In this document: in pieces, positions 3,407 through 56,790 of the stretch
Position numbering within the stretch: the first letter of the stretch is position 1
How the letters are laid out: every line of letters begins with the position of its first letter
Virus record (IMG/VR): IMGVR_UViG_2778261375_000003
DNA length: 64,000 bases
Reading direction: 5' to 3' (one strand)
From: a virus
Taxonomy: Duplodnaviria; Heunggongvirae; Uroviricota; Caudoviricetes
Notes under the pieces: generated by a model
Seen by the model: the letters and a program-made list of their open reading frames with translations, nothing else
Database searches by the model: none
Told to the model about the DNA's origin: nothing
Position numbers and translations under genes: made by a program

Positions 3407-6053
3407 TTGCATATTCCTTAGCCCAGCGGGGCAGTGATAACGTCTTAATAGCTGGCCATTCATCGGTATTGAGGCAGTCAGCCAGGGTTCGCAGATTGCG
3501 GTGATATTCCAGCTGACCTGCCAGTTTTGCTTCTTCGCCCATCATGAAAATTTCAACCGGATAACGTCCGCATTCAATAGTTGTGCTGGCAACCAGAAAA
3601 ACGAAAGTTGGCTGCACTCCAAACTGTGCTTCATAACCGTCACTGTAGAATGCATCCTGAACGTGATAGCGGTAGTCGTAATAAGCGGTTTTGAATCGTT
3701 GAATATCCGCCGTAGTTTTCACGTCCATGATCCAGTGAAATTCAGGGATAATTTTGTCCGGACGGCACCGACACAAAATTCCTGTTTCAGGATCTTCCCA
3801 GTAAATTGATGATTCAGCGTGTCCGGCGCTTTCAACAAGCCATTGCCCCAGCGGCAAAGCCATAACGCTTTGATACATGAGTTCAATTTTCCGGCCTTCT
3901 TCCGCAGTGATAACCGTTTTTCCTGTGCTTGCGCATTCCATCAGAAACGCTTTCTCTTCTTCTTTTCCGGCGTTTGTACGGCGGTTAAATTCAGGTGCTA
4001 CGATAAAGCGGTTACTGAATTCTTCCGGTTCAAGTACCCGGCAGTGGAAAGCGGTTCCTAAATCGAGCGTTTTTGTCTTTGTGGTGTCCACGGGGGCATT
4101 TTTACGCCACAAATACAGTGCCGGAGTATCAGCAATGTCGTCGAGCTGAGACTTACTGACACCGGGACCCGCGTGGTAACTCTCATTCGAAATTCCGTAA
4201 TAAATACCTGGCTCTATGTCTTCTACGATTACGGGATCTGCGACTTCGCCAGTTTCATCACTGCAATCGCGATGCGGATCGCTGCCAGCATTCTCATTGT
4301 GCGGATGTTCAGCGCCTTCCATTTCCTCCGGATCATTTTCCTTAGCTTCAACCTGATTCTCTTCACCGAATGTTTCCTGGTATGTTGCGTCGCCCATCAC
4401 CGCACCACAGTCAGGGCAGTTATCCCCGCCAGTCTGACCGCAGGCATTGCAGACTATTTCCGGTTCCTGTTGCACTACTGGCTCAGGTTGTTTCACATCC
4501 GGGCTGGTTTTTTCCGTTTCTGGCGTGTTTTGTTCCGTTTCTGGCTGGTTCTGGTACACAGAATCGCGAGTCTGGATCCCCTTAACCCATTTCGGATCGT
4601 TCGGGTCGCTAATTCCGTCAACAAATTCACCACGTGATGCAGCAAGCAATTTATCGGCATCGACAGGATTTTTTGATGGAATGTTTTTCCGGGCTTCATG
4701 GAGTTCTGCCCGCAGTTCCTGATATTTCGCATCAACAGAATTTACCTGTGACTGAGCATCCAGCGGCTGCGTGTCCTGATGATGTTCAGTTGCGTCCGGT
4801 TCCATTGTTTCAGCCTCTCCCTGTTCATCTGCCGTTGTTCCAGTTGGTTGTGGTTTTTCTTCATCATCCTGTTTTCCTTCTTCTGTTACACGCTGCGGCA
4901 TCGGGGCAGAGGAGCGACCGCAGGCAATATCCACGATTTCCGGATCAGGGTTGGCATGATCGGTTTCAGTCAGTACTTTGTTCAGATATTCAGTGACGTG
5001 CGCGGGGATGACCTCGATCCCAATTGGTGCTTTTTTCACGGACGCAACCACGATGGCGCGTGAATAATCCAGCCCGCCAGGCATGGTGATGAATTTGTCG
5101 CGGAAAACAGAAAAGGGCGGTTTATTTTCAGCGATAATTTCCTCGACACGTTTAGCGTGTGCCGGATGAAGGTTATAAATGTCCACGTCCATTGAACGAG
5201 CCAGTACGCCAGTGGCTACGTCGCGCGCCAGTGACGTCAGATCGTGAACGAAACCTTCGCCGCGATCGGTGAGGTTCCCGCCGCCAGCATTAGCGCCGGA
5301 AGCCGTGCGCGTGATGCGTGAAACACGATTTCCTTTCATCCACTCTTTTGTCAGCAGACCGCGATCGGTGTAGTCTGCGTCCAGGTATGCTTCGAAAAAA
5401 GCAGTCATCAGCCCCAGGCTTGAATTGCCTGGATTAGGGAAAACTCTGTCAGTATCACGCACCAGTTTGTGGAGATCGCGAATTTCCAGCGGGTCGAGCA
5501 GGCTGGTTTTGTGGGAAACAGCCAGGGCAGTAACAGCTGGTAGTTCTTCAGCTCGTGCAATGTGTAATGCCTGGAGTTTGTCGCGTGAAACGTGCGTTAC
5601 CGGTTTTTCGCTGCCGTGTTGAGCAAGCCAGCGAATGGGCAGCTCCTGACCGGAAATCGGGAGTAGCATATTCTCCTCAATCTCCGTCATGTCTTCGCCA
5701 TTAACATTGGTATTGTCAGTGCTGGCTGGTTTGTCCTGCGCAGAGGATGAGGGCGCGATAAATACCATTGTGATGCCATCTTCCCCGCCTTTTTCGTAAC
5801 GGTTGCAGAATTCCGTATCAAATACGCCCTCTGGTGGAAGGTCATCAACAACGGGCAAATTGACGCGAACAGGTTTTTTAAAGTCATCTTCATCGTAGCC
5901 AGCATCGTCAATCGCAACAGCACCACGGGATATGGCAATGGATAATTTTTTCGCTTCAGCCCAGTAGAAACCGCCTTTAATACCGAGACGTTTTCTTACT
6001 TTGTCATTTTTTGCTTCGTAATACAGTGGGTAAACTTGTTTATCGGTGCTCAT
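3399..6053 (-). CDS. recE: RecE exonuclease VIII
   Basis: 884-aa ORF overlapping recT start; acidic low-complexity middle and C-terminal nuclease domain (...[22 protein letters not shown]...) as in Rac RecE. Confidence 0.9.
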
Positions 6054-6894: not shown

Positions 6895-7289
6895 AATTAT
6901 CTCCATTTTTACAAATGAATTTTGTCGATGCGGTGCCTGGTGCCTCCAGGTGACGTTAACCAGTTAACAATTAACGCCGGATAATCCACCCATAACACTG
7001 ATGCTTTTAACTGTTCCGCGTGCGCTTAGCCGCATTCACCGCATCACAAAATTCACTTTAAAAAGGGGCGGCAGGGCAGCCACGGAGTAGAACTGATGCC
7101 GCCAAAGACTAGACACAGCAATGTCGTTATTTACAACCGGAGGCGCACTCCCACCATTTAAATTTAACAGACAAGACCGACTCTTTATGAATACCGGAAA
7201 TGCGCCTTCGTGTTGTGCGCCTGTCTTTTTACCACTTCAGGCTCGGTGGTATACTGGAGTTCTCACACAACCAGTAATAAGGTATTCCG

Positions 7290-13931: not shown

Positions 13932-14015
13932 ATGACCTGGCCTGAGGCATTCACCACGGTAGGAATTGCAATGGCGGTGGCGCTGGTGGTGTATTCGATT
14001 TGCCGCTGGGGATAA
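13932..14015 (+). CDS. Possible 27-aa hydrophobic peptide
   Basis: Hand-found ORF MTWPEAFTTVGIAMAVALVVYSICRWG; below ORF-track cutoff; speculative. Confidence 0.25.
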   Translation: MTWPEAFTTVGIAMAVALVVYSICRWG

Positions 14016-14203
14016 AAACGGTTTGCGGGAAAAGGAGAGTTAAGTAGAATTGCAGCGGGTGCTTGAGGCTATCTGCCTCGGGCATGAACACCAACGGCAG
14101 ATAGATAAAAGCCCCACCCGACTATAAATCGAAGTGAGGCCCCTATATGCTCGTCACATATAGATTGCCTCTTACGGACCGAAAGGTCAAGGAGAAGCAG
14201 GCT

Positions 14204-14359
14204 ATGAAGCAGCAAAAGGCGATGTTAGTCGCCCTGATCGTCATCTGTTTAACCGTCATAGTGACGGCACTGGTAACGAGGAAAGACCTCTGCGAGGTAC
14301 GAATCCGAACCGGCCAGACGGAGGTCGCTGTCTTCGTAGACTACGAACCTGAGGAGTAA
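14204..14359 (+). CDS. hok: Hok/Gef-family type I toxin
   Basis: 51 aa MKQQKAMLVALIVICLTVIVTALVTRKDLCEVRIRTGQTEVAVFVDYEPEE, near-identical to recalled HokD/RelF; in-frame upstream ATG at 14147 could act as a mok-like leader. Confidence 0.9.
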   Translation: MKQQKAMLVALIVICLTVIVTALVTRKDLCEVRIRTGQTEVAVFVDYEPEE

Positions 14360-14427
14360 GAGACCCGGCGGGGGAGAAATCCCTCGCCACCTCTGATGTG
14401 TCAGGCATCCTCAACGCACCCGCACTT

Positions 14428-14450
14428 ACCCCGCTTCGGCGGGTTTTTTG
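14428..14450 (+). terminator. Rho-independent terminator of hok transcript
   Basis: ccccgcttcggcggg hairpin followed by tttttt. Confidence 0.7.
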
Positions 14451-14637
14451 TTGTTTATTTTCGGTGAGCATGATGCATCTGGTTGTACTGATGTGGCTGG
14501 CTGATTCTGTTATTCAGGTGGCTTATTGCTGTTGATTGGTATGTCTTCACGGCTAGAATCGAGGCTCTTAAGTAGCGCGCAGGGAGAAGAGGGATGGACC
14601 CCGAAGGGGAAGAGCTATTTATCTGGAAGGATTCTGA

Positions 14638-14813
14638 AGATGAAAATCGAAGAATTGCGTGAAATTTTTAGTGAAAATGGCCTCTATGCTGTGCGCGTTG
14701 AGAATGGGAAAGTTGTCTACACAACGTTAATCCCTGATGATCATGTAATTTTATCTATCGAGGCATTCATTGAATACCTTGAAAGGCTCGGTTTCAAGGT
14801 GGTTCGCGAATGA
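14638..14813 (+). CDS. Hypothetical small protein
   Basis: 58-aa ORF from MKIEELREIF; start chosen at internal ATG. Confidence 0.4.
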
Positions 14814-14872
14814 GTTATAATTCGTAAGCCAGCCTGAACAACTGGCAACCTACAGCGCCATTGGAGGCAGCA

Positions 14873-15472
14873 ATGGCGCATATACAACTGGTCAAACAAA
14901 CCTCTTCCGGATTACTTCTCCCGGCGACGCCGGAGAGTTGTGATTTTCTGCATCAAATCAAAATAGGTGAGTGGATACACGCAGACTTTAAGCGTGTGCG
15001 TAACTACGCGTTCCACAAGCGTTTTTTCAAACTCCTGCAACTGGGATTCGATTACTGGACTCCGAACGGTGGGGCGATCACGCCTCGCGAACGAGAACTG
15101 GTGTCCGGTTTCGTTGAGTATCTGTGCGAATCAGTTGGTCGGGAACACACTCCAGCCCTGAGCGAAGCCGCAGAGCAATATCTGAATGCCGTTGCGACAC
15201 GCAGAACCCGGGATACGGCATTGCTAAAGTCGTTTGACGCTTTCCGCGAGTGGGTAACCATTCAGGCCGGATTTTACACCGAGCATATTTATCCTGATGG
15301 TAGTCGTGGGCGCAGGGCAAAATCTATCGCATTTGCGAATATGGACGAAACCGAGTTTCAGCAGGTTTATAAATCTGTACTGAATGTGCTGTGGAACTGG
15401 ATCCTGTTCCGTAAATTTTCCTCTCCGGAGGAAGTCGAAAATGTGGCCGCACAGTTACTGGAGTTTGCGTAA
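14873..15472 (+). CDS. Nin-region protein, DUF1367-like
   Basis: ATG 14873 behind ggagg RBS; recalled as the family paired with DUF1364 upstream of Q in lambdoid prophages. Confidence 0.5.
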   Translation: MAHIQLVKQTSSGLLLPATPESCDFLHQIKIGEWIHADFKRVRNYAFHKRFFKLLQLGFDYWTPNGGAITPRERELVSGFVEYLCESVGREHTPALSEAAEQYLNAVATRRTRDTALLKSFDAFREWVTIQAGFYTEHIYPDGSRGRRAKSIAFANMDETEFQQVYKSVLNVLWNWILFRKFSSPEEVENVAAQLLEFA

Positions 15473-15762
15473 TGGTGGATTTACGTAAAGCGGCGCGGGG
15501 GCAGATGTGCACCGTCAGAATTCCTGGCTACTGCAATCACAATCCCGAAACTTCTGTGCTGGCGCATTACAGGCTGGCGGGGACGTGCGGAACAGCGACA
15601 AAACCACACGATATGCAGGCAGCGATTGCCTGTAGCTCATGCCACGATCTAATCGACGGGCGGGTAAAAACCAGCGATTACACCAAAGAAGAATTACGCC
15701 TGATGCATGCAGAAGGTGTTTTTCGCACACAAGAAATCTGGAGAAAGGAAGGTTATTTATGA
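15472..15762 (+). CDS. DUF1364 protein, YbcO-like
   Basis: MVDLRKAARGQMCTVRIPGYCNHNPETSVLAHYRL...CSSCHD resembles recalled YbcO; ATGG start overlaps previous stop. Confidence 0.7.
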   Translation: MVDLRKAARGQMCTVRIPGYCNHNPETSVLAHYRLAGTCGTATKPHDMQAAIACSSCHDLIDGRVKTSDYTKEELRLMHAEGVFRTQEIWRKEGYL

Positions 15763-16313
15763 TTTACCCAACAAATACAGGCAAAAGCGGGGAACACCTT
15801 CGTCTCACCACGCTGGAAAGTGTCTGGATTCAGGGAAAACTGCGCATGTGGGGGCGCTGGTCGTATATTGGCGGCGGTAAGACGGGAAATATGTTCAACC
15901 AGTTGCTGACCTCTAAAAAGCTGACAAAAACGGCAATTAACGAGGCGCTCCGGAGGATGAAAAAAGCAGGTCTGGACAAACCTGAACTTGAGGCTTTTTT
16001 GCGGGATATGATCAACGGCAAGCAAAAAAGCTGGCTGGTGCATTGTACTGATGCAGAGGCGTTATGCATTGATCGGGTGATTAGTGAAGTGCTGGCAGAA
16101 CACCCAGGATTGATTTGTATCCTCCGGCAACGATATGAAGGGAGGGGGATGACTAAGCGAAAAATGGCTGAGTTGCTGAATGATTCACACCCTGAGTGGT
16201 GTTACGCCACGTGCCGTAATCGCATAGATGCGTGGTTGAAAATGGCAGAGTTTATGCTCTATCTGCCGATGCGTGATGCATTCTCTTCCGGGGATCTAAA
16301 AACCGTCTGTTGA
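15759..16313 (+). CDS. Late-gene antiterminator, Q21-like
   Basis: 184 aa; blocks LRMWGRWSYIGG / CTDAEALCIDRVI / RIDAWLKMAEFMLYL parallel recalled phage-21-type Q; followed by promoter plus short terminated leader. Confidence 0.6.
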   Translation: MIYPTNTGKSGEHLRLTTLESVWIQGKLRMWGRWSYIGGGKTGNMFNQLLTSKKLTKTAINEALRRMKKAGLDKPELEAFLRDMINGKQKSWLVHCTDAEALCIDRVISEVLAEHPGLICILRQRYEGRGMTKRKMAELLNDSHPEWCYATCRNRIDAWLKMAEFMLYLPMRDAFSSGDLKTVC

Positions 16314-16339
16314 CTCAATCTGTTATCCGGGGCTATATT
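16310..16339 (+). promoter_or_regulatory. Candidate late promoter pR'
   Basis: TTGACT (16310-16315), 18-bp spacer, TATATT (16334-16339), overlapping the Q stop codon. Confidence 0.4.
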
Positions 16340-16400
16340 CCTCACGCGCCAGCAAAATCTGGCGTCGGGATTGGCGTCCTGGATAGAGACCGCGACAGAT

Positions 16401-16422
16401 ACACGCCGCGAGCGTGTTTTTT
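16401..16422 (+). terminator. Candidate tR' terminator of a short pR' leader RNA
   Basis: acacgccgcgagcgtgt hairpin plus tttttt, about 75 nt downstream of the predicted pR' start. Confidence 0.5.
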
Positions 16423-16583
16423 ATTGTCGTATGCACGCGCACATCTGAATTATGGTGGGCTGTGTGGGGGCGGAGAGATCCGCGCCGGTCGGTTTCCCGG
16501 TTACGCCAACCCTGCACAGTTCACCACCAGATGATTGGCGTCGTCGGTGGTGAGTTATTAAGAAACCACCAGAGGGCGTCATT

Positions 16584-17195
16584 ATGACAACTCAAATTTC
16601 TGTTGAAACTCTCTCCCCGATCACCCATAACCAGATTCCTGTTATTACCACCGAACTTTTGGCGCAGCTTTACGGCACTGAGCCGGTGCGCATTCGCCAG
16701 AATCATCATGAGAACAAAGTACGCTTCGTTGAAGGGAAACACTTTTTCAAAGTTGTTGGTAATGACCTTAAAGAATTGCGGGTAGCTTTAAACTACTCAC
16801 AAAATTTGCGGGTTACTTTAAGTAACTCACAAAATTTGCAACCATCTTTAAGAGGGTTACAAATTTCCCCGAAAGCCCGCTCCCTCATCCTCTGGACAGA
16901 ACGCGGAGCAGCCCGTCATGCCAAAATGCTCGAAACCGATCAGGCGTGGGATGTGTTCGAAAAGCTGGAAGACTGCTATTTCAGACAAAAGGATCCGTCA
17001 GCGCCAGCTTCATGCCAGAAAAGTTACGACACGCGAGTTCTCTGTTATCAGCGAGGCGGTGTCACTGTTTCCACAATTCAGTTGCGGGATGATGATATTG
17101 TTATTTCCCTTGAGTCATGGCTGGAACTGGCGAGAGCCAATGGTTGGTTTGTTGTTCGCAGAGATAAACTGGTGGAAAGGCTGATGCAGCTTTAA
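16584..17195 (+). CDS. ORF6N-domain protein (antirepressor-like), with internal 30-bp tandem repeat
   Basis: N-terminus PVITTELLAQLYGTEPVRIRQNHHENKVRFVEGKHFFKV fits remembered ORF6N pattern; 30-bp unit repeated about 2.5 times at 16776-16865. Confidence 0.55.
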   Translation: MTTQISVETLSPITHNQIPVITTELLAQLYGTEPVRIRQNHHENKVRFVEGKHFFKVVGNDLKELRVALNYSQNLRVTLSNSQNLQPSLRGLQISPKARSLILWTERGAARHAKMLETDQAWDVFEKLEDCYFRQKDPSAPASCQKSYDTRVLCYQRGGVTVSTIQLRDDDIVISLESWLELARANGWFVVRRDKLVERLMQL

Positions 17196-17290
17196 AAAAG
17201 TTCTTGCAATTTTAGCCATAAACTGCTTCAATTCCGTTACGCTTCGCAAAGCTGTATCGCGAGGCGAACCAAGCGCATGAACTTTACCAG

Positions 17291-17316
17291 AACCCGCCAT
17301 TGAGCGGGTTTTGTTG
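17291..17316 (+). terminator. Rho-independent terminator after ORF6N gene
   Basis: aacccgccattgagcgggtttt hairpin plus T-rich tract. Confidence 0.6.
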
Positions 17317-17332
17317 TTTCTGGAGAACACCC

Positions 17333-17605
17333 ATGAAATTTTATGAATTATCTTCTGAGTCCCGATCTCAGGCCAAAATCACACTGGGTCAGTTGATTGT
17401 GGCTCGGGCTAACACCGGGATGGATGATTTTGAAAATTTGGGGCATTGCATCGCTGCCGCGTTTATTGCGATGGAGCGCCATGAAAGCGCCCCTGAGGTT
17501 GGTGAGGGGCGTAGCGGGAACGGAATACCCGTTAATGGCGATCAAAAACTAGCATCCAACGTCGTGAACGTGATGATTCACTATCCGTGTGACTCTATAG
17601 CGTGA
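17333..17605 (+). CDS. Hypothetical cargo protein
   Basis: 90 aa from MKFYELSSESR; ggagaa RBS; no family recognised. Confidence 0.45.
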   Translation: MKFYELSSESRSQAKITLGQLIVARANTGMDDFENLGHCIAAAFIAMERHESAPEVGEGRSGNGIPVNGDQKLASNVVNVMIHYPCDSIA

Positions 17606-17661
17606 CAGCGACAGTAAATTGGGTAAAATTTTCTACGCTGCAATATGCGAAAGGGGATGAA

Positions 17662-18231
17662 ATGAACGATCTGCCCGATGACTACTTTCTTGATGCTGAC
17701 GATGATCTTGTCGATTTTCTTGAAAAACAGGGTGAAGACTGCATAGGTGAAATCTATCGGTCAAATTCAGTAAATAAAGAAAATGGCTATAAGCTGTTGA
17801 GCATCCTAATCGTCGGTATTGGATCTTCATTTTTGCTGTTAACGCAAAAGACGCAGATTGACTTTCTTAGCGCAGGCATTGCCGTTTTCACCGTGTACTG
17901 GTCAGTTTGTGCTATTTATCTTGTTATTAATGTGCTGACGGTTCACACATACGGACTTGTTTCCACATCACCTGCAGATTTGTATACCGAAGCTTATAAA
18001 GGGATTTGCGAGTCCGATTTCGAGAACCTTAAGGCAAGGGGTTTTGTCGGTAAAAATGACCGCCTTTCAGTGATGAGGCGGTACAGATTGAAAACGTTAT
18101 GTGTGACTGCTGATGAGTTGCTCCAGGTCAATGAAACCATAAGAACCAGACTGAAAAAAGCAAGGATAGCGACTATCCTTGCTCCTGTTTACGCGATTAT
18201 TATTTCAGCTATCACTTACCTTTTTTTCTGA
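17662..18231 (+). CDS. Hypothetical multi-pass membrane protein (cargo between Q and holin)
   Basis: ATG 17662 behind aaagggga RBS; acidic N-terminus then three hydrophobic helices. Confidence 0.5.
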   Translation: MNDLPDDYFLDADDDLVDFLEKQGEDCIGEIYRSNSVNKENGYKLLSILIVGIGSSFLLLTQKTQIDFLSAGIAVFTVYWSVCAIYLVINVLTVHTYGLVSTSPADLYTEAYKGICESDFENLKARGFVGKNDRLSVMRRYRLKTLCVTADELLQVNETIRTRLKKARIATILAPVYAIIISAITYLFF

Positions 18232-18452
18232 TTCCTTCAGCGGAATCACCAACGATCCTTCTACCGACTGAAAAACGGTCGGGTTGAACTGGGGCCGGTT
18301 TTTGCTGCTGTGTTGGCTGTGGCTTGCTTTCACCTGCCGGCTTGTTTGACTGGCTCATCTAATTCTCCATATTTGATAAGGTTATCTTTGGCGATTTAAC
18401 GATATCAAACACGAGGATATACCGCCAGAAGCTTAATCTGGCACTCCATCTG

Positions 18453-18477
18453 GCCCCGGCATGTCCCGGGGCTTTTT
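18453..18477 (+). terminator. Hairpin terminator upstream of lysis cassette
   Basis: gccccggcatgtcccggggc followed by ttttt. Confidence 0.5.
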
Positions 18478-18575
18478 CGTTGTTAGGCTCCGGAAACATC
18501 CTCGACTTCTTGTGAGCAAGCCTGAGAGCCTGAATCTTACACTTAGCACCATCCGAACTCTCGGAGGTGAGGCTT

Positions 18576-18917
18576 ATGAAAATGCACAATGCCCCTCATT
18601 CCTGGCCTGACTTACTGGAACTCTTACAAAGTTGGTGGCGTGGAGATACGCCGCTGGGCGCAGTGGTTATGTCAATTATTATGGCTGGTTTGCGCATTGC
18701 CTATTTTGGCGGTGGCGGCGGCTGGAAACGAAAAACGCTTGAGATTCTGCTTTGTGGTGCTCTGACGCTGACCTTTGCATCCGCGCTTGAGTATGTCGGA
18801 TGGCCTAAATCACTTTCTGTTGCCATTGGTGGTGGGGTGGGGCTGATTGGTGTTGATGCTATTCGTGGTGCGGCAATGAGGGTCATCGGTAACAAGTTCG
18901 GTGCCCATAAGGAGTAA
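18576..18917 (+). CDS. Holin, lambda S family, with dual-start motif
   Basis: MKMHNAPHS... (Met1-Lys-Met3 like lambda S); three hydrophobic segments, glycine-rich C-terminal region; ggaggtgagg RBS; directly upstream of endolysin. Confidence 0.8.
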   Translation: MKMHNAPHSWPDLLELLQSWWRGDTPLGAVVMSIIMAGLRIAYFGGGGGWKRKTLEILLCGALTLTFASALEYVGWPKSLSVAIGGGVGLIGVDAIRGAAMRVIGNKFGAHKE

Positions 18918-18920
18918 TTA

Positions 18921-19397
18921 ATGCAGACACTTAATTCCCAGCGTAAAGCTTTCCTTGATATGGTGGCATGGTCAGAAGGAACAGATAACGGACGGCAGAA
19001 AACCAGAAATCACGGTTATGATGTTATTGTCGGTGGCGAACTGTTCACTGATTACTCCGATCACCCCCGCAAACTTGTCACGCTAAATCCGAAACTCAAA
19101 TCAACAGCCGCCGGACGTTACCAGCTTCTTTCACGCTGGTGGGATGCCTACCGCAAGCAACTTGGTCTGAAAGATTTTTCTCCAGAAAGCCAGGATGCTG
19201 TAGCGCTGCAGCAGATTAAAGAGCGTGGCGCTTTACCGATGATTGACCGCGGCGATATTCGTCAGGCAATCGACCGTTGCAGCAATATCTGGGCTTCGTT
19301 GCCGGGCGCTGGTTACGGTCAGTATGAACATAGAATCGGTGACCTGATTGCCCGATTTAAAGAAGCTGGTGGGGGGGTAAATGAAGCTGAGATATAA
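18921..19397 (+). CDS. Endolysin, lambda R-type lytic transglycosylase
   Basis: 158 aa; ...NSQRKAFLDMVAWSEGTDNGRQKTRNHGYDVIVGGELFTDYSDHPRKLVTLNPKLKST... nearly identical to recalled lambda R. Confidence 0.95.
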   Translation: MQTLNSQRKAFLDMVAWSEGTDNGRQKTRNHGYDVIVGGELFTDYSDHPRKLVTLNPKLKSTAAGRYQLLSRWWDAYRKQLGLKDFSPESQDAVALQQIKERGALPMIDRGDIRQAIDRCSNIWASLPGAGYGQYEHRIGDLIARFKEAGGGVNEAEI

Positions 19398-19773
19398 GCT
19401 GGTTATTGTTGCCTTCTTTGTTACCGTCATCGGTTCTTTTATCTGGTCTGCCGGGCATTACTACAGCAAATATCAGCACGAAAAGGAGCGCGCTGATGAG
19501 GCTGTACGAAATGCTGAATCTGCAACAGCCATTACCAGTAACGTCCTGCAATCACTGCAAATCATCAATACAGTTATAGAGGCTAACCAGCATGCAAAAC
19601 AGCAGATCGCACTGGAGTCACAGAGAACCCAGGAAGATATCAAAGTGGCTGTTGCGGATGATGATTGCGCTGTTCGTGTTGTTCCTTCTGGCGCAGTTAA
19701 GCGGTTGCACGAATACGCGAACGGTATACGTGTCGGTGCCGGTCATTCCGTTACCAGCAAGTCTGACGGCTGA
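19381..19773 (+). CDS. Rz-like i-spanin
   Basis: 130 aa; N-terminal TM helix then coiled-coil periplasmic domain; immediately after endolysin. Confidence 0.7.
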   Translation: MKLRYKLVIVAFFVTVIGSFIWSAGHYYSKYQHEKERADEAVRNAESATAITSNVLQSLQIINTVIEANQHAKQQIALESQRTQEDIKVAVADDDCAVRVVPSGAVKRLHEYANGIRVGAGHSVTSKSDG

Positions 19774-19936
19774 AACACCCCAGCCAGATTTACCCGACCC
19801 GTTTACGTGGGGAGCCAGCCTTAACCTGAATGTTGCGTTGTTGTCAGCGTTAGCACAGTGCAACAGGGATAAGGCTGATATCAGGACTTTTGAGAAAAAC
19901 AGGGCAGCACAAACCAATGGCACGATTAAACGTTGA
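19658..19936 (+). CDS. Rz1-like o-spanin lipoprotein (overlapped architecture)
   Basis: +1-frame ORF starting inside Rz; lipobox LAQLSGC; proline-rich mature part; extends past the Rz stop. Confidence 0.6.
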   Translation: MMIALFVLFLLAQLSGCTNTRTVYVSVPVIPLPASLTAETPQPDLPDPFTWGASLNLNVALLSALAQCNRDKADIRTFEKNRAAQTNGTIKR

Positions 19937-20102
19937 AGTTATCCCACCAGACAGCGAAACGATGAACGGGATTTTTGCAGAGATTGAACGTAAATATGCG
20001 CATCAGCCGATGACGCCAAAAGTTATCGATGAAATGCAACGCGAAGCGGCGCGCCTTGTAAGGCGAGCGACAAACACGAAGGTTACGTTTGTTCGGGACT
20101 GA
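19917..20102 (+). CDS. Hypothetical small protein
   Basis: 61-aa ORF from MARLNVEV between spanins and terminase. Confidence 0.4.
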   Translation: MARLNVEVIPPDSETMNGIFAEIERKYAHQPMTPKVIDEMQREAARLVRRATNTKVTFVRD

Positions 20103-53951: not shown

Positions 53952-54563
53952 CCCAGAAAAACAAAAACCGGCGAGAAGTTACCACGAGAACGGAAAGTAA
54001 ACAAGAATACTCCCATTGACTTATATCAATTAATCAACTTTTTATAAGCTATCCCTAACTTATTGTGTATAGCTGAAAAGTCAGAGACAAGTTCACCATC
54101 TGCATTATTTCTTAAGTTAATAGTTTATTGCTAACTTAATTTATGTATCGACTATTGATATCCATCTTAAAGTTACAATATCCCTCTGCATTATTTTTCA
54201 TCACAAATAATATATCTATTGCACTACACTCACCTGCTCTAATAAATTTGTATTTTTAAGTCACAAATGCTATCTTTTCGCATCATATTGACCTTTTAAT
54301 CGTTCAGGCTTATAGTTCCGCCGTCGTAGCAAATTCTGCGACCGGGTTTAGCAGCCTGAATGATTGTGCGGACAGCCGCAGATATCCGATATTGCGGTAT
54401 TTTTGTGTCCGTAAAACCGTGTTACGCCCAAATTATGGTGGGGCGTGATGGGGAGGCTTCGGCCTGCTGGTTTCACAATCGCCAGTCTGCTAACCCCGTC
54501 ACGTCCTGCCACCTGTTTAGCAGCGGGTAGCAGGTTGTTAAACCTGATTGTGAGGCCGTAACT

Positions 54564-54785
54564 ATGGTTAATGCCAATCCTTGCGCACGCCAAGAATTCA
54601 TCTGGCGTTTCTATTCCTGTAAAAAACACCACTATCACTTCGTCATCGCAGCAACAGAAGACGAAGCACGCTCTCAATTGCCTGATGGCCCCTGCATTTT
54701 TACTGCCCGTTTTTCAACTAACTCGCGCAATTCACTTAGTTACTGGAACCTCCCCTTCTCTGCCGACGTTCAGGGGGATTTATGA
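54564..54785 (+). CDS. Icd-like small protein (putative cell division inhibitor family)
   Basis: 73 aa; EFIWRFYS...HFVIAATEDEARSQL...TARF fits remembered Icd-like pattern; gagg RBS; ATGA-coupled to antirepressor. Confidence 0.4.
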   Translation: MVNANPCARQEFIWRFYSCKKHHYHFVIAATEDEARSQLPDGPCIFTARFSTNSRNSLSYWNLPFSADVQGDL

Positions 54786-55825
54786 AAAAACCTCTCGTCA
54801 CCCGTAATGAAATAGCCGAAGCGATCGCCCTGCATACAACCTGTATGCCGACACGGGAGATCCCCGGCGCAATTGCCAACTATTTCATGATAACCAGACG
54901 TTTTTATACCCGAACAGATAAGGCTGTGATCAACAAGCTACTGATAGCCGAGATCAGGGATTATTTGATTGAACAAGGACGTCTACGTTACGCAACAGTG
55001 GCAGCAGAAATGAGAAAGGAGGCGCGCAGAATGACCGGTAATAATTTGAATGTTGAAAAACCAGCACCTGTTGCTTCAGCTACGCCATCACCAGCTGTGA
55101 ATGTTATCTCCAACACTGGAGACACAATCGACAGCCAGACACTGTTAAAGATGGTCAATGAAGCTCGTAAGTTATGTGGGGAACCAGAGGTTCGGAACAA
55201 CAAATTCATCGAAAAAATACTCGACGAATTAGAAGGTGAGGACGGTTACACAAAAAGTGCAACCGTGCCGCCAGGTGGCGGTACGCCTATGGTTGTCATA
55301 ACCATGACCTACAAACAAGCCCTGCGAGTCGCCGCACGCGAATCAAAAGCCGTCCGCCGTTCGCTGATCGACAAACTGGAAGAATTGCAGCAGGCAAACT
55401 CCCCTGCCCCATCGATCCCCCAAACATTACCAGAAGCTCTACGCCTGGCTGCCGAGTTGGCAGAACAGAAAATGCAGCTGGAACAACAGCTGGTGGCCGC
55501 CGCTCCTAAAGTCGATTTTGCCGACCGGGTATCAGTGGCTAATGGAATCCTGATCGGGAACTTTGCAAAGGTCGTTGGACTTAAGCAAAACGCCCTTTTC
55601 TCATGGTTGCGCCAGAACGGCATTCTCATGGCTTTTGGTGCGCGCAAAAACGTACCGCGCCAACAGTACATCAACGCCGGGTATTTCACGGTGAAAGAAG
55701 TGGTGCTGGATGATGAAAATGGCTACCAGATACGGCTGACGCCCCAATTAACGGGTAAAGGCCAGCAGTGGTTAACTCGCAAGCTACTTGATGCTGGTTT
55801 GTTAAAACCAGTAGCAATAGGTTAA
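54782..55825 (+). CDS. Phage antirepressor with KilA-C/ANT C-terminal domain
   Basis: C-terminal 130 aa (LPEALRLAAELAEQK...GYFTVKEVV...TGKGQQWL) match the ANT/KilA-C pattern and are paralogous to next gene. Confidence 0.7.
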   Translation: MKKPLVTRNEIAEAIALHTTCMPTREIPGAIANYFMITRRFYTRTDKAVINKLLIAEIRDYLIEQGRLRYATVAAEMRKEARRMTGNNLNVEKPAPVASATPSPAVNVISNTGDTIDSQTLLKMVNEARKLCGEPEVRNNKFIEKILDELEGEDGYTKSATVPPGGGTPMVVITMTYKQALRVAARESKAVRRSLIDKLEELQQANSPAPSIPQTLPEALRLAAELAEQKMQLEQQLVAAAPKVDFADRVSVANGILIGNFAKVVGLKQNALFSWLRQNGILMAFGARKNVPRQQYINAGYFTVKEVVLDDENGYQIRLTPQLTGKGQQWLTRKLLDAGLLKPVAIG

Positions 55826-55837
55826 CAAAAGAAAAAA

Positions 55838-55863
55838 ACCTGCCAGCAAACTGGCAGGTTTCT
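55838..55863 (+). terminator. Hairpin terminator after first antirepressor
   Basis: acctgccagcaaactggcaggt hairpin followed by ttct; weak U-tract. Confidence 0.45.
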
Positions 55864-55989
55864 GAGCAGATCGACCAACCCGATCTGGATCGAGTTAGAA
55901 AAATTTGCTCTAATAAATTTCGTTTTCTAAGTGCAAAGAATCACCATTTCGAGCTGGTGATTGAAGGTTGATGCAAATTTGGAGAAAAA

Positions 55990-56790
55990 ATGCAACAAAC
56001 ATTCAATGCGGATATGAATATATCAAACCTTCATCAAAATGTCGATCCTTCAACCACTCTGCCTGTTATTTGTGGTGTTGAAATTACGACCGACCGCGCT
56101 GGCCGTTACAACCTTAATGCTCTACACAGAGCGAGCGGACTCGGTGCCCATAAAGCGCCAGCTCAATGGCTAAGAACGCTGTCAGCCAAACAGCTCATCG
56201 AAGAGCTTGAAAAAGAAACTATGCAGAATTGCATAGTTTCGTTCGAAGGCCGTGGCGGCGGCACTTTTGCCCATGAATTGCTCGCTGTGGAGTACGCAGG
56301 CTGGATTTCTCCCGCATTTCGGCTGAAGGTAAACCAGACATTTATCGACTATCGAGCCGGAAGATTACAACCAGCTATTCCGCAGAGTCTCCCTGAAGCT
56401 CTCCGTTTGGCTGCCGACCTGGCAGAGCAAAAGCAACGGCTGGAGCAAAAAATGCTTATGGATGCACCTAAAGTCGAATTCGCCGAACGCGTTGCTACCG
56501 CTAGCGGGGTTCTAATCGGCAACTATGCCAAAGTGCTCGGCCTGGGCCAAAACTATCTCTTCACCTGGTTGCGTGATAACGGAATTCTGATCGCAACCGG
56601 TGAACGCAGGAACGTCCCCAAACAAGAATACATATCTCGTGGGTATTTCACCCTTAAAGAAACCGTGATCGATACAAGCAATGGAAGCAGGATTTCTTTC
56701 ACGACTCGTATAACCGGCAAAGGTCAGCAGTGGCTGATGAAGCGATTGCTTGATGCTGGTGTGCTGGTACCTGTCGCGGCAACGCGCTAA
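55990..56790 (+). CDS. Phage antirepressor, KilA-N plus KilA-C domains
   Basis: N-terminal KilA-N-like region (...NLNALHRASG...AQWLR...FEGRGGGTFAHELLAVEYAGWISP...); C-terminal ANT domain paralogous to previous gene; ggagaaaaa RBS. Confidence 0.75.
   Translation: MQQTFNADMNISNLHQNVDPSTTLPVICGVEITTDRAGRYNLNALHRASGLGAHKAPAQWLRTLSAKQLIEELEKETMQNCIVSFEGRGGGTFAHELLAVEYAGWISPAFRLKVNQTFIDYRAGRLQPAIPQSLPEALRLAADLAEQKQRLEQKMLMDAPKVEFAERVATASGVLIGNYAKVLGLGQNYLFTWLRDNGILIATGERRNVPKQEYISRGYFTLKETVIDTSNGSRISFTTRITGKGQQWLMKRLLDAGVLVPVAATR

Follow-up and report, generated by a model that had tools for sequence, protein, structure and literature searches.

The isrK switch of the Salmonella prophage Gifsy-1 is related to the immI locus of phage P1. 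The Gifsy-1 locus comprises antQ, isrK, orf45/STnc1160, anrP and isrJ (Hershko-Shalev et al. 2016, PMC4825925). Transcription from its isrK promoter yields a 77-nt small RNA (sRNA) and, by read-through, an mRNA of about 910 nt. The sRNA targets the longer transcript in trans and thereby allows translation of the antirepressor, which in turn switches on the antQ operon (PMC4825925). Here we analyze the corresponding locus in a 64,000-nt stretch of DNA from a member of the Caudoviricetes (IMG/VR record IMGVR_UViG_2778261375_000003), which is called the window throughout and whose features lie on the + strand unless stated otherwise. In an earlier note on this DNA, the promoter that directly follows a Q-like antiterminator gene (15759-16313, 184 amino acids, family DUF1133) had been taken for the Q-modified late promoter pR', and the short terminated RNA behind it for a constitutive leader. 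According to our comparisons, this short RNA is IsrK, and the Q-dependent late promoter of the prophage is likely a different element at 17204-17243, about 890 bases downstream of the isrK promoter and just past the antirepressor gene. We put the probability at about 80% that two adjacent units of different modules, the Q gene and an isrK cassette, meet at this site and that Q loads at 17204-17243 and not at the isrK promoter. What adjoins the Q21-like gene is an E. coli representative of an RNA switch already known and studied experimentally, and its mechanism is not new.

In satellite phage P4, by comparison, the CI RNA terminates transcription of replication genes and no antirepressor is involved. 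The P4 CI RNA (seqA/seqB/seqC) and C4 belong to the same Rfam clan (CL00128), and P4 seqA was named as a structural homologue of IsrK by the authors of the Gifsy-1 study (PMC4825925). For late antitermination, phage 21 provides the closest model. As annotated in record OL657228, its late region consists of the Q stop codon, a -35 hexamer TTGACA, a 17-bp spacer with the Q-binding element (QBE), a -10 hexamer AACACT, the start, the pause sequence TAAGCTG, a terminator and tRNA genes. The QBE is contacted by residues A124, T125, R127 and R128 of helix H6 of the phage 21 Q protein, Q21 (PMC6606751).

The isrK cassette

The sequence elements listed in the earlier note are all present. The stop codon TGA of the Q-like gene (16311-16313) falls within the -35 hexamer TTGACT (16310-16315), and the -10 hexamer TATATT (16334-16339) follows after an 18-bp spacer and ends 6 nt before position 16346. 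An intrinsic terminator with a GC-rich 6-bp stem (ACACGC/GCGTGT, 16401-16417) is followed by the T run within TTTTTTATT, so that a transcript starting at G16346 and ending at 16422 would be 77 nt long. A consensus scan of positions 14000-20000 yielded 6 promoter-like sites with 5.7 expected, and 8 terminator-like sites with 6.3 expected. Consensus matches are thus at chance level, and the significance of the unit must rest on other evidence.

This evidence comes from the Rfam covariance models. The isrK model (RF01394) matches 16346-16422 over its full length (1-77 of 77) with 75.5 bits (gathering threshold 50, E = 1.1e-15), beginning exactly at the predicted start, and the c4-a1b1 model (RF03163) matches 16333-16385 with 50.5 bits (gathering threshold 46.7). 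The predicted RNA accordingly consists of two 5' hairpins with a1/b1-type sites and the terminator. The helices and the terminator vary with compensatory changes, and the unit is kept in many prophages. Because of the full-length match and of this conservation, we regard the promoter and its short terminated RNA as a real unit. The RNA flagged in the earlier note is, as judged from the model match, IsrK, a member of a known sRNA family and the first part of an antirepressor-control cassette. Nucleotides C18, G28, G31, C159, C162 and AUG107, which were mutated in the Gifsy-1 study, are found at identical transcript positions here; position 173 is A here and G in Gifsy-1.

A C4-type antisense RNA element, which corresponds to STnc1160 of Salmonella, follows the terminator at 16448-16531 (RF01695, 66.7 bits, gathering threshold 45; predicted fold -44.5 kcal/mol, z = -4.2). 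Within this element, CGCCAACCC (16504-16512) is complementary to the b1/b2 sites, with the complement CGCCAA at 16504. The b1-type sequence GAUUGGCG at 16369 recurs at 16533-16540 as a b2-type target, directly after an AUG at 16531. According to this repeat, the reading frames and the predicted fold, the region 16531-16587 comprises the b2-type target and an 18-codon leader open reading frame (ORF), whose stop codon overlaps the ATG of the antirepressor gene (ATGA). A second short ORF of 33 amino acids (16452-16553) begins at the conserved AUG107, and a hairpin at 16540-16577 adjoins the ant ribosome-binding site. Both length and frame of the leader ORFs vary among cassette variants. The antirepressor gene itself (16584-17195, 203 amino acids) encodes an ORF6N-domain protein (PF10543, E = 5e-19; PHROG 2379, 'anti-repressor') equivalent to AnrP; no match was obtained for it in NCBIfam, and in PADLOC only a weak one to PDC-S05 (E = 0.00047).

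By sequence comparison, isrK, the C4 element and the antirepressor gene form a self-contained cassette (16310-17195). The nin regions of VT2-Sakai and of many other Stx phages share 99% identity with the window from position 16323 on; in these phages, the cassette follows ninE, far from Q, with an identical TTGAC-18-TATATT promoter. Twelve cassette copies located behind a DUF1133 Q gene, a Q gene of the phage 82 family (Q82), ninE or another nin gene were aligned. TTGAC and ATyCGGGGCTATATT are invariant in all 12, and there is no conservation further upstream. Family identities and cassette boundaries are thus direct results of these comparisons. The promoter and the first 40 transcribed nucleotides are essentially identical behind DUF1133 Q, Q82-family Q and ninE. 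The position of the Q stop codon within the -35 hexamer recurs in Gifsy-1 (AAT TGA C). It looks like a by-product of the cassette edge, which starts with TTGAC and into which the upstream ORF runs. It is rather probable, though with less confidence than the placement of the Q loading site, that the cassette is a portable prophage-induction switch that has inserted behind ninE in Stx phages and, in two or more unrelated Q families, between the Q gene and the late promoter belonging to it.

Compared to Gifsy-1 (LT2 record, L117), the order of Q, isrK, C4-like RNA, ORF6N antirepressor, short terminated RNA and lysis genes is the same, and both loci have the isrK promoter in common, with the TGA of the upstream gene within TTGAC. 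However, the upstream Q protein is of the Q82-like type (PF06323) in Gifsy-1 and of the Q21-like type (DUF1133) here. As a result of this difference in Q family, the unit behind the antirepressor gene differs as well, with no isrJ match in the window. Furthermore, the 45-codon orf45 is not intact here but is split into the 33-codon and 18-codon ORFs. With immI of phages P1 and P7 the locus shares a C4 RNA and a c4-a1b1 match, both above threshold, a repeated target (16369 and 16533), whose second copy lies at the start of an ORF coupled to ant, and an antirepressor gene downstream. In contrast to immI, an intrinsic terminator lies between b1 and C4, resulting in a separate short RNA (IsrK), and the antirepressor is of the ORF6N type. 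Between C4 and ant only short ORFs are present; an explicit comparison with Icd was not made. By analogy with Gifsy-1, the logic would also include activation by the short RNA and not only repression by C4 (PMC4825925).

Some further observations concern the cassette. In 12 of 12 aligned copies, the promoter spacer ATCCGGGGC (16324-16332) and the 3' arm of helix 2 in IsrK (16378-16386) are complementary to each other. This spacer lies outside of IsrK but would be present in transcripts entering from the Q operon, where it could refold the b1 hairpin. A fold obtained with RNAalifold in which untranscribed promoter DNA was included paired the spacer with helix 2 and was not used as a structure of IsrK. 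A duplex prediction for IsrK and the downstream RNA over-extended to one long duplex and was uninformative, and short exact complementarities were used instead. In one Salmonella prophage (L007), the isrK-C4 cassette occurs twice, at 1290-1476 within the nin region, upstream of Q, and at 4588-4768, directly after Q. GenBank entry PP818812.1 (Actinobacillus phage vB_Apl-pPE4) matches 15700-16536 with 90.7% identity, including Q and the isrK cassette; a host from the Pasteurellaceae is surprising, and contamination or mislabelling may be involved.

A Q-linked element beyond the antirepressor gene

The start codon of the Q-like gene (ATG 15759) overlaps the stop codon of the preceding YbcO/DUF1364 gene (ATGA). 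The encoded protein matches PF06576 (DUF1133) with 358 bits and the Q21 family PF06530 with 27.5 bits (cut-off 26), and belongs to PHROG 753 ('anti-termination protein Q-like'); NCBIfam gave no match. When the single protein was compared with the sequences in the PDB, the only meaningful match was phage 21 Q (E = 0.0016). With a profile built from 15 DUF1133 proteins and without Q21, the Q21 entries 6p18/6jnx were retrieved at E = 1.9e-5, the next match being at 0.16. In the alignment, 27% of the residues are identical, and of recognition helix H6 of Q21 the ATCR motif is retained (residues 150-155, ATCRNR, opposite Q21 ATCRRE), with R128 replaced by N. DUF1133 proteins carry an extra insert of 23 residues relative to Q21. 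The L3 loop, through which R113 of Q21 reaches into the minor groove, is absent, since all aligned DUF1133 proteins show a 13-residue gap opposite Q21 VARPRKMLCRGGG. An AlphaFold model computed from the single sequence had a mean pLDDT of 48 and was unusable for a check of the fold; the homologues listed were all at least 78% identical. Given the 27% identity, the retained ATCR motif and the differences in the insert and the L3 loop, the label 'Q21-type' proposed earlier is acceptable as a remote family assignment. By these matches the protein is the late-gene antiterminator of the prophage, a DUF1133 member and a remote relative of phage 21 Q.

For the localization of its late promoter, 107 loci encoding relatives of the Q-like protein were collected, and the sequence following the stop codon was compared. 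About 35 loci resemble the window in that Q is followed by the isrK cassette. Another 55 or so DUF1133 loci contain neither isrK nor C4 nor the antirepressor gene, and their Q proteins are about 88% identical over residues 1-176. In these cassette-less loci, ATAAACTGCTTCAATT..TAyGCTTCGCAAAGCTGTATCGCGAGG, a short leader and a terminator are found 6-19 nt past the Q stop codon, and tRNA genes or other cargo come after the terminator. In the cassette-bearing loci, the equivalent element is located 844-1054 nt past the Q stop codon, just beyond the antirepressor gene. A 27-mer of this element matches the window once, at 17238-17264 with 1 mismatch (0 matches expected by chance). Of 108 Q loci, 95 contain the motif TT[CG]AAT-N4-6-TAnGCT, which has a single occurrence in the 64 kb of the window. 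This linkage to Q is a direct observation. By sequence, the 17204-17318 element is inherited together with the DUF1133 Q family.

In the window, the proposed pR' consists of a -35 hexamer TTGCAA (17204-17209), a 17-bp spacer as the candidate region for Q binding, an extended -10 element TGcTTCAAT (hexamer 17227-17232) and, after 5 nt, the -10-like, pause-type hexamer TACGCT (17238-17243). The predicted leader RNA of about 80 nt (17239-17318, with a putative start) has a 5' hairpin at 17240-17266 and ends at an intrinsic terminator, tR' (17288-17313), with a U run; its calculated folding energy is -28.8 kcal/mol (z = -3.0). Across the loci, AAAsTGm in the spacer and GCnC further upstream are conserved. 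In more distant genera with Q proteins that are 56-65% identical, the element overlaps the end of the Q gene and reads TTGCAA-17 bp-TTGAAT-N5-TAGGCT.

An overlap of the proposed late promoter with the 3' end of Q was seen in Superficieibacter, Pseudescherichia, Klebsiella, Enterobacter and Phytobacter (L010, L014, L016, L022 and L024). In these five genera the Q C-terminus ...ESA or ...ESD is encoded by the promoter motif GAAAGTGmTTGAAT. Some of the spacers contain GTGAGCA, which is close to the phage 21 QBE subsite TGAGCA.

The earlier note had also suggested an alignment with the late region of phage 21. Here, the layout fits 17204-17318 and not the isrK promoter, which does not have these family-specific features: TTGACA-17-AACACT-7-TAAGCTG plus terminator in phage 21 corresponds to TTGCAA-17-TTCAAT-5-TACGCT plus the terminator at 17288-17313 in the window. 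The parts thus stand in the order of pR'21 (Yin et al. 2019; Shi et al. 2019, PMC6606751) behind the gene of a remote Q homologue. Unlike in phage 21, the TGAGCA direct repeats are not seen in the E. coli spacer, and the element is parted from Q by the 0.9-kb cassette.

The same pattern was obtained for an unrelated Q family. AntQ of Gifsy-1 belongs to the Q82 family (PF06323, 396 bits) and is 70% identical to phage 82 Q. Among 76 Salmonella-type loci retrieved with the published IsrJ probe sequence, the Q82-family loci show the order Q, isrK, C4, ant and isrJ in 24 cases, and in 28 Q is directly followed by isrJ, whose promoter overlaps the final codons of Q. IsrJ (RF01393) was found directly after Q82-family Q in cassette-less prophages (loci examined including L116, L117, L123, L189 and L190). 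In phage 434, the end of the gene for a Q82-like Q protein can be aligned with the isrJ promoter (TTGCAA-17-TATATT), and a terminator lies just downstream there as well. In Q82-family prophages, isrJ is thus the equivalent of the 17204-17318 element. In both Q families, the unit that adjoins Q in cassette-less phages thus stands after the antirepressor gene when the cassette is present.

The Salmonella sRNA IsrJ has been reported to affect invasion. Its location directly after Q82-family Q and the alignment of its promoter with the end of the 434 Q gene make it look like a pR' leader, and from these comparisons IsrJ appears to be the terminated late-promoter leader RNA of Gifsy-1. In the literature that we searched, no paper stating this was found. 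The predicted 80-nt RNA at 17239-17318, as the positional equivalent of IsrJ, and IsrJ itself hold the pR'-tR' position that is known from lambda 6S RNA and StxS (Sy et al. 2020, PMC7547250). Both would be constitutive by-products of a Q-controlled promoter, whereas IsrK is by this comparison not a pR' leader. An assignment of 17204-17318 to the Rfam isrJ family was rejected, as there was no isrJ match in the window (15600-18700 searched to E = 1) or in the DUF1133 loci. The isrK-isrJ spacing of 837 nt given in the literature lands on TACGCT in L007; it was not used because the Q of L007 is a DUF1133 protein and not the Gifsy-1 Q.

For this E. coli copy, we infer transcript starts, pausing, Q loading and the RNA-RNA switch by analogy. 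As in Gifsy-1 and P1 immI, mostly the short 77-nt IsrK would be made from the isrK promoter. A fraction of the transcripts would continue past the terminator, whose 6-bp stem is modest, to include the C4 element together with the antirepressor gene, and would probably end at 17313. Pairing of the C4 element with the b1/b2 sites would keep this long RNA translationally silent. IsrK would titrate the C4 element in trans and so release either the AUG at 16452 or the start of the leader ORF near 16531. Ribosomes would then melt the hairpin at 16540-16577 beside the ant ribosome-binding site, allowing the antirepressor to be made. The antirepressor would inactivate the prophage repressor and thereby lead to early transcription and to the synthesis of Q. 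As in phage 21, Q would load on RNA polymerase paused at TACGCT just after the start at about 17239, and the Q-loaded polymerase would pass the terminators at 17288-17313 and later at 18452-18473 into the cargo and lysis genes.

Where Q acts

Several points weigh against loading of Q at 17204-17243. No clear direct-repeat pair of Q-binding subsites is visible in the 17-bp spacer of the E. coli element. The proposed -10 hexamer TTCAAT is without the usual A at position 2 and relies on the upstream TG and on the analogy with the poor -10 hexamer AACACT of phage 21. Furthermore, the Q DNA of cassette-bearing and cassette-less loci diverges from about position 16203 onward. The last 36 or so Q codons (16203-16313) differ between the two classes, including the helix aligned to Q21 H6, which reads YATCRNR with the cassette, FSTCEKR without it and RTCCSRV in the cassette-bearing DUF1133 Q of Salmonella (L063, L068 and L007 compared). 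This divergent 3' segment is co-inherited with the isrK promoter, as would be expected of a Q variant that recognizes a site within the cassette. Finally, IsrK supplied in trans raised read-through 8-fold in Gifsy-1 cells able to make AntQ (PMC4825925), and an action of Q on the IsrK terminator therefore keeps some probability.

These points bear above all on the proposal of the earlier note, according to which 16310-16339 is pR', IsrK is its constitutive leader, and Q reads through all terminators to the antirepressor, cargo and late genes. The isrK promoter stands at the canonical spot immediately after Q and is followed by a short terminated RNA, and IsrK has been described as derived from an antitermination-regulated promoter (Sy et al. 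2020, PMC7547250). The co-inherited 3' end of Q encodes the equivalent of the recognition helix, and in Gifsy-1 the 8-fold increase in read-through appeared once the cascade producing AntQ was triggered (PMC4825925). However, the promoter and the first 40 nt are nearly identical behind DUF1133 Q, Q82-family Q and ninE. Two unrelated Q families could not have one binding site in common, which argues against a function of this promoter as pR'. The conservation of the early-transcribed bases is accounted for by the a1/b1 RNA sites. In addition, the isrK promoter is absent after Q in the roughly 55 cassette-less DUF1133 loci, and the cassette-less relatives of both Q families have another conserved promoter and leader directly after Q. 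The start region of the isrK promoter contains no TAnGCT-type pause hexamer, which is found instead in the Q-linked element at 17204-17318; its only -10-like hexamer, CAAAAT (+8 to +13), is the conserved a1 loop. Thus, the promoter for a short terminated RNA postulated in the earlier note is borne out by the full-length isrK match, with an RNA of about 77 nt, and its function as a Q-modified pR' is improbable.

Still less probable is a combination of both sites, in which a Q protein with the ...MRDAFSSGDLKTVC tail has gained a second loading site in the cassette and the ancestral one at 17204-17243 was kept. Such an arrangement would provide positive feedback from Q via more antirepressor to more Q, it would suit the altered recognition-helix region that travels with the cassette, and CAAAAT could serve as a -10-like pause hexamer. 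However, the CAAAAT loop is also kept in cassettes without an adjacent Q and in the P1-type a1/b1 model, and the cassette-bearing DUF1133 Q of Salmonella has the helix RTCCSRV beside an unchanged promoter. The core of the downstream TTCAAT/TAnGCT element remains at least 90% identical despite the divergence of the H6 helix between the Q classes, a discrepancy that keeps some probability on the two-site reading and on that of the earlier note.

Equally remote is the reading that the late promoter is a consensus-scan site at 18346-18373 with a terminator at 18452-18473, immediately upstream of the lysis genes, and that 17204-17318 is no more than the terminator region of the antirepressor transcript. 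Only some 13 of 108 Q loci contain the segment 18346-18473, in both cassette states and always close to a holin gene, and it is not linked to Q; for the element at 17204-17318, linkage to Q was seen in 95 of the 108.

With Q loading at 17204-17243, both the window and Gifsy-1 would carry an antirepressor-control cassette between Q and its likely loading site. For annotation, this means that it should not be presumed that pR' is whichever terminated promoter comes first behind a Q gene. The element provides a candidate loading site for the large and uncharacterized DUF1133 group of Q-like proteins; if this holds true, these proteins are Q21-like antiterminators with the loading-site signature TTGCAA-17-TGnTTsAAT-5-TAnGCT. 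IsrJ would then correspond to lambda 6S RNA and StxS, with the 17239-17318 RNA as the E. coli analogue of IsrJ. Work on the IsrK switch has been confined to Salmonella; the switch is widespread among prophages of E. coli and among Stx phages, in which it could influence prophage induction. The DUF1133 loading site, IsrJ as a pR' leader and the recurrent placement of the cassette are refinements that can be tested; they do not amount to a system of a new kind.

Neighbouring genes and further RNA elements

As stated in the earlier note, cargo precedes the lysis genes. Two ORFs to which no function was assigned (17333-17605, PHROG 26625; 17662-18231, PHROG 11870), both without a match in NCBIfam or PADLOC, stand between tR' and the lysis cassette (18567-19773). 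The latter encodes a lambda-family holin (18567-18917, PF05106), an endolysin (18921-19397) and a spanin-like DUF2570 protein (19381-19773, PF10828), an annotation that is also given in RefSeq for the identical prophage region of E. coli RM8082. Upstream of the holin gene, the region 18346-18480 contains the promoter-like sequence TTGACT-16-CATATT (18346-18373) and a strong terminator, GGCCCCGG...CCGGGGC with a T run (18452-18473), and it overlaps a short ORF on the minus strand (18212-18358).

A second C4-type module is present on the + strand at 54290-56790. Behind a promoter-like site TTGACC...TATAGT, it comprises a c4-a1b1 match (54310-54362, 55.5 bits) and a C4 RNA (54431-54516, 69.6 bits), followed by antirepressor-like ORFs at 54782-55825 and 55990-56790; Rfam gave no isrK-type match in this region. 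With the module at 16310-17195, the window therefore holds two antirepressor-control modules. Other Rfam matches are SraC/RyeA with SdsR/RyeB at the left edge, RalA, DicF and sok (463-607, 2169-2347, 7066-7117 on the minus strand, and 14057-14206), the sok antitoxin RNA being accompanied by a hok-type ORF at 14147-14359. Together, these RNAs are typical of a Rac/Qin-like lambdoid prophage.

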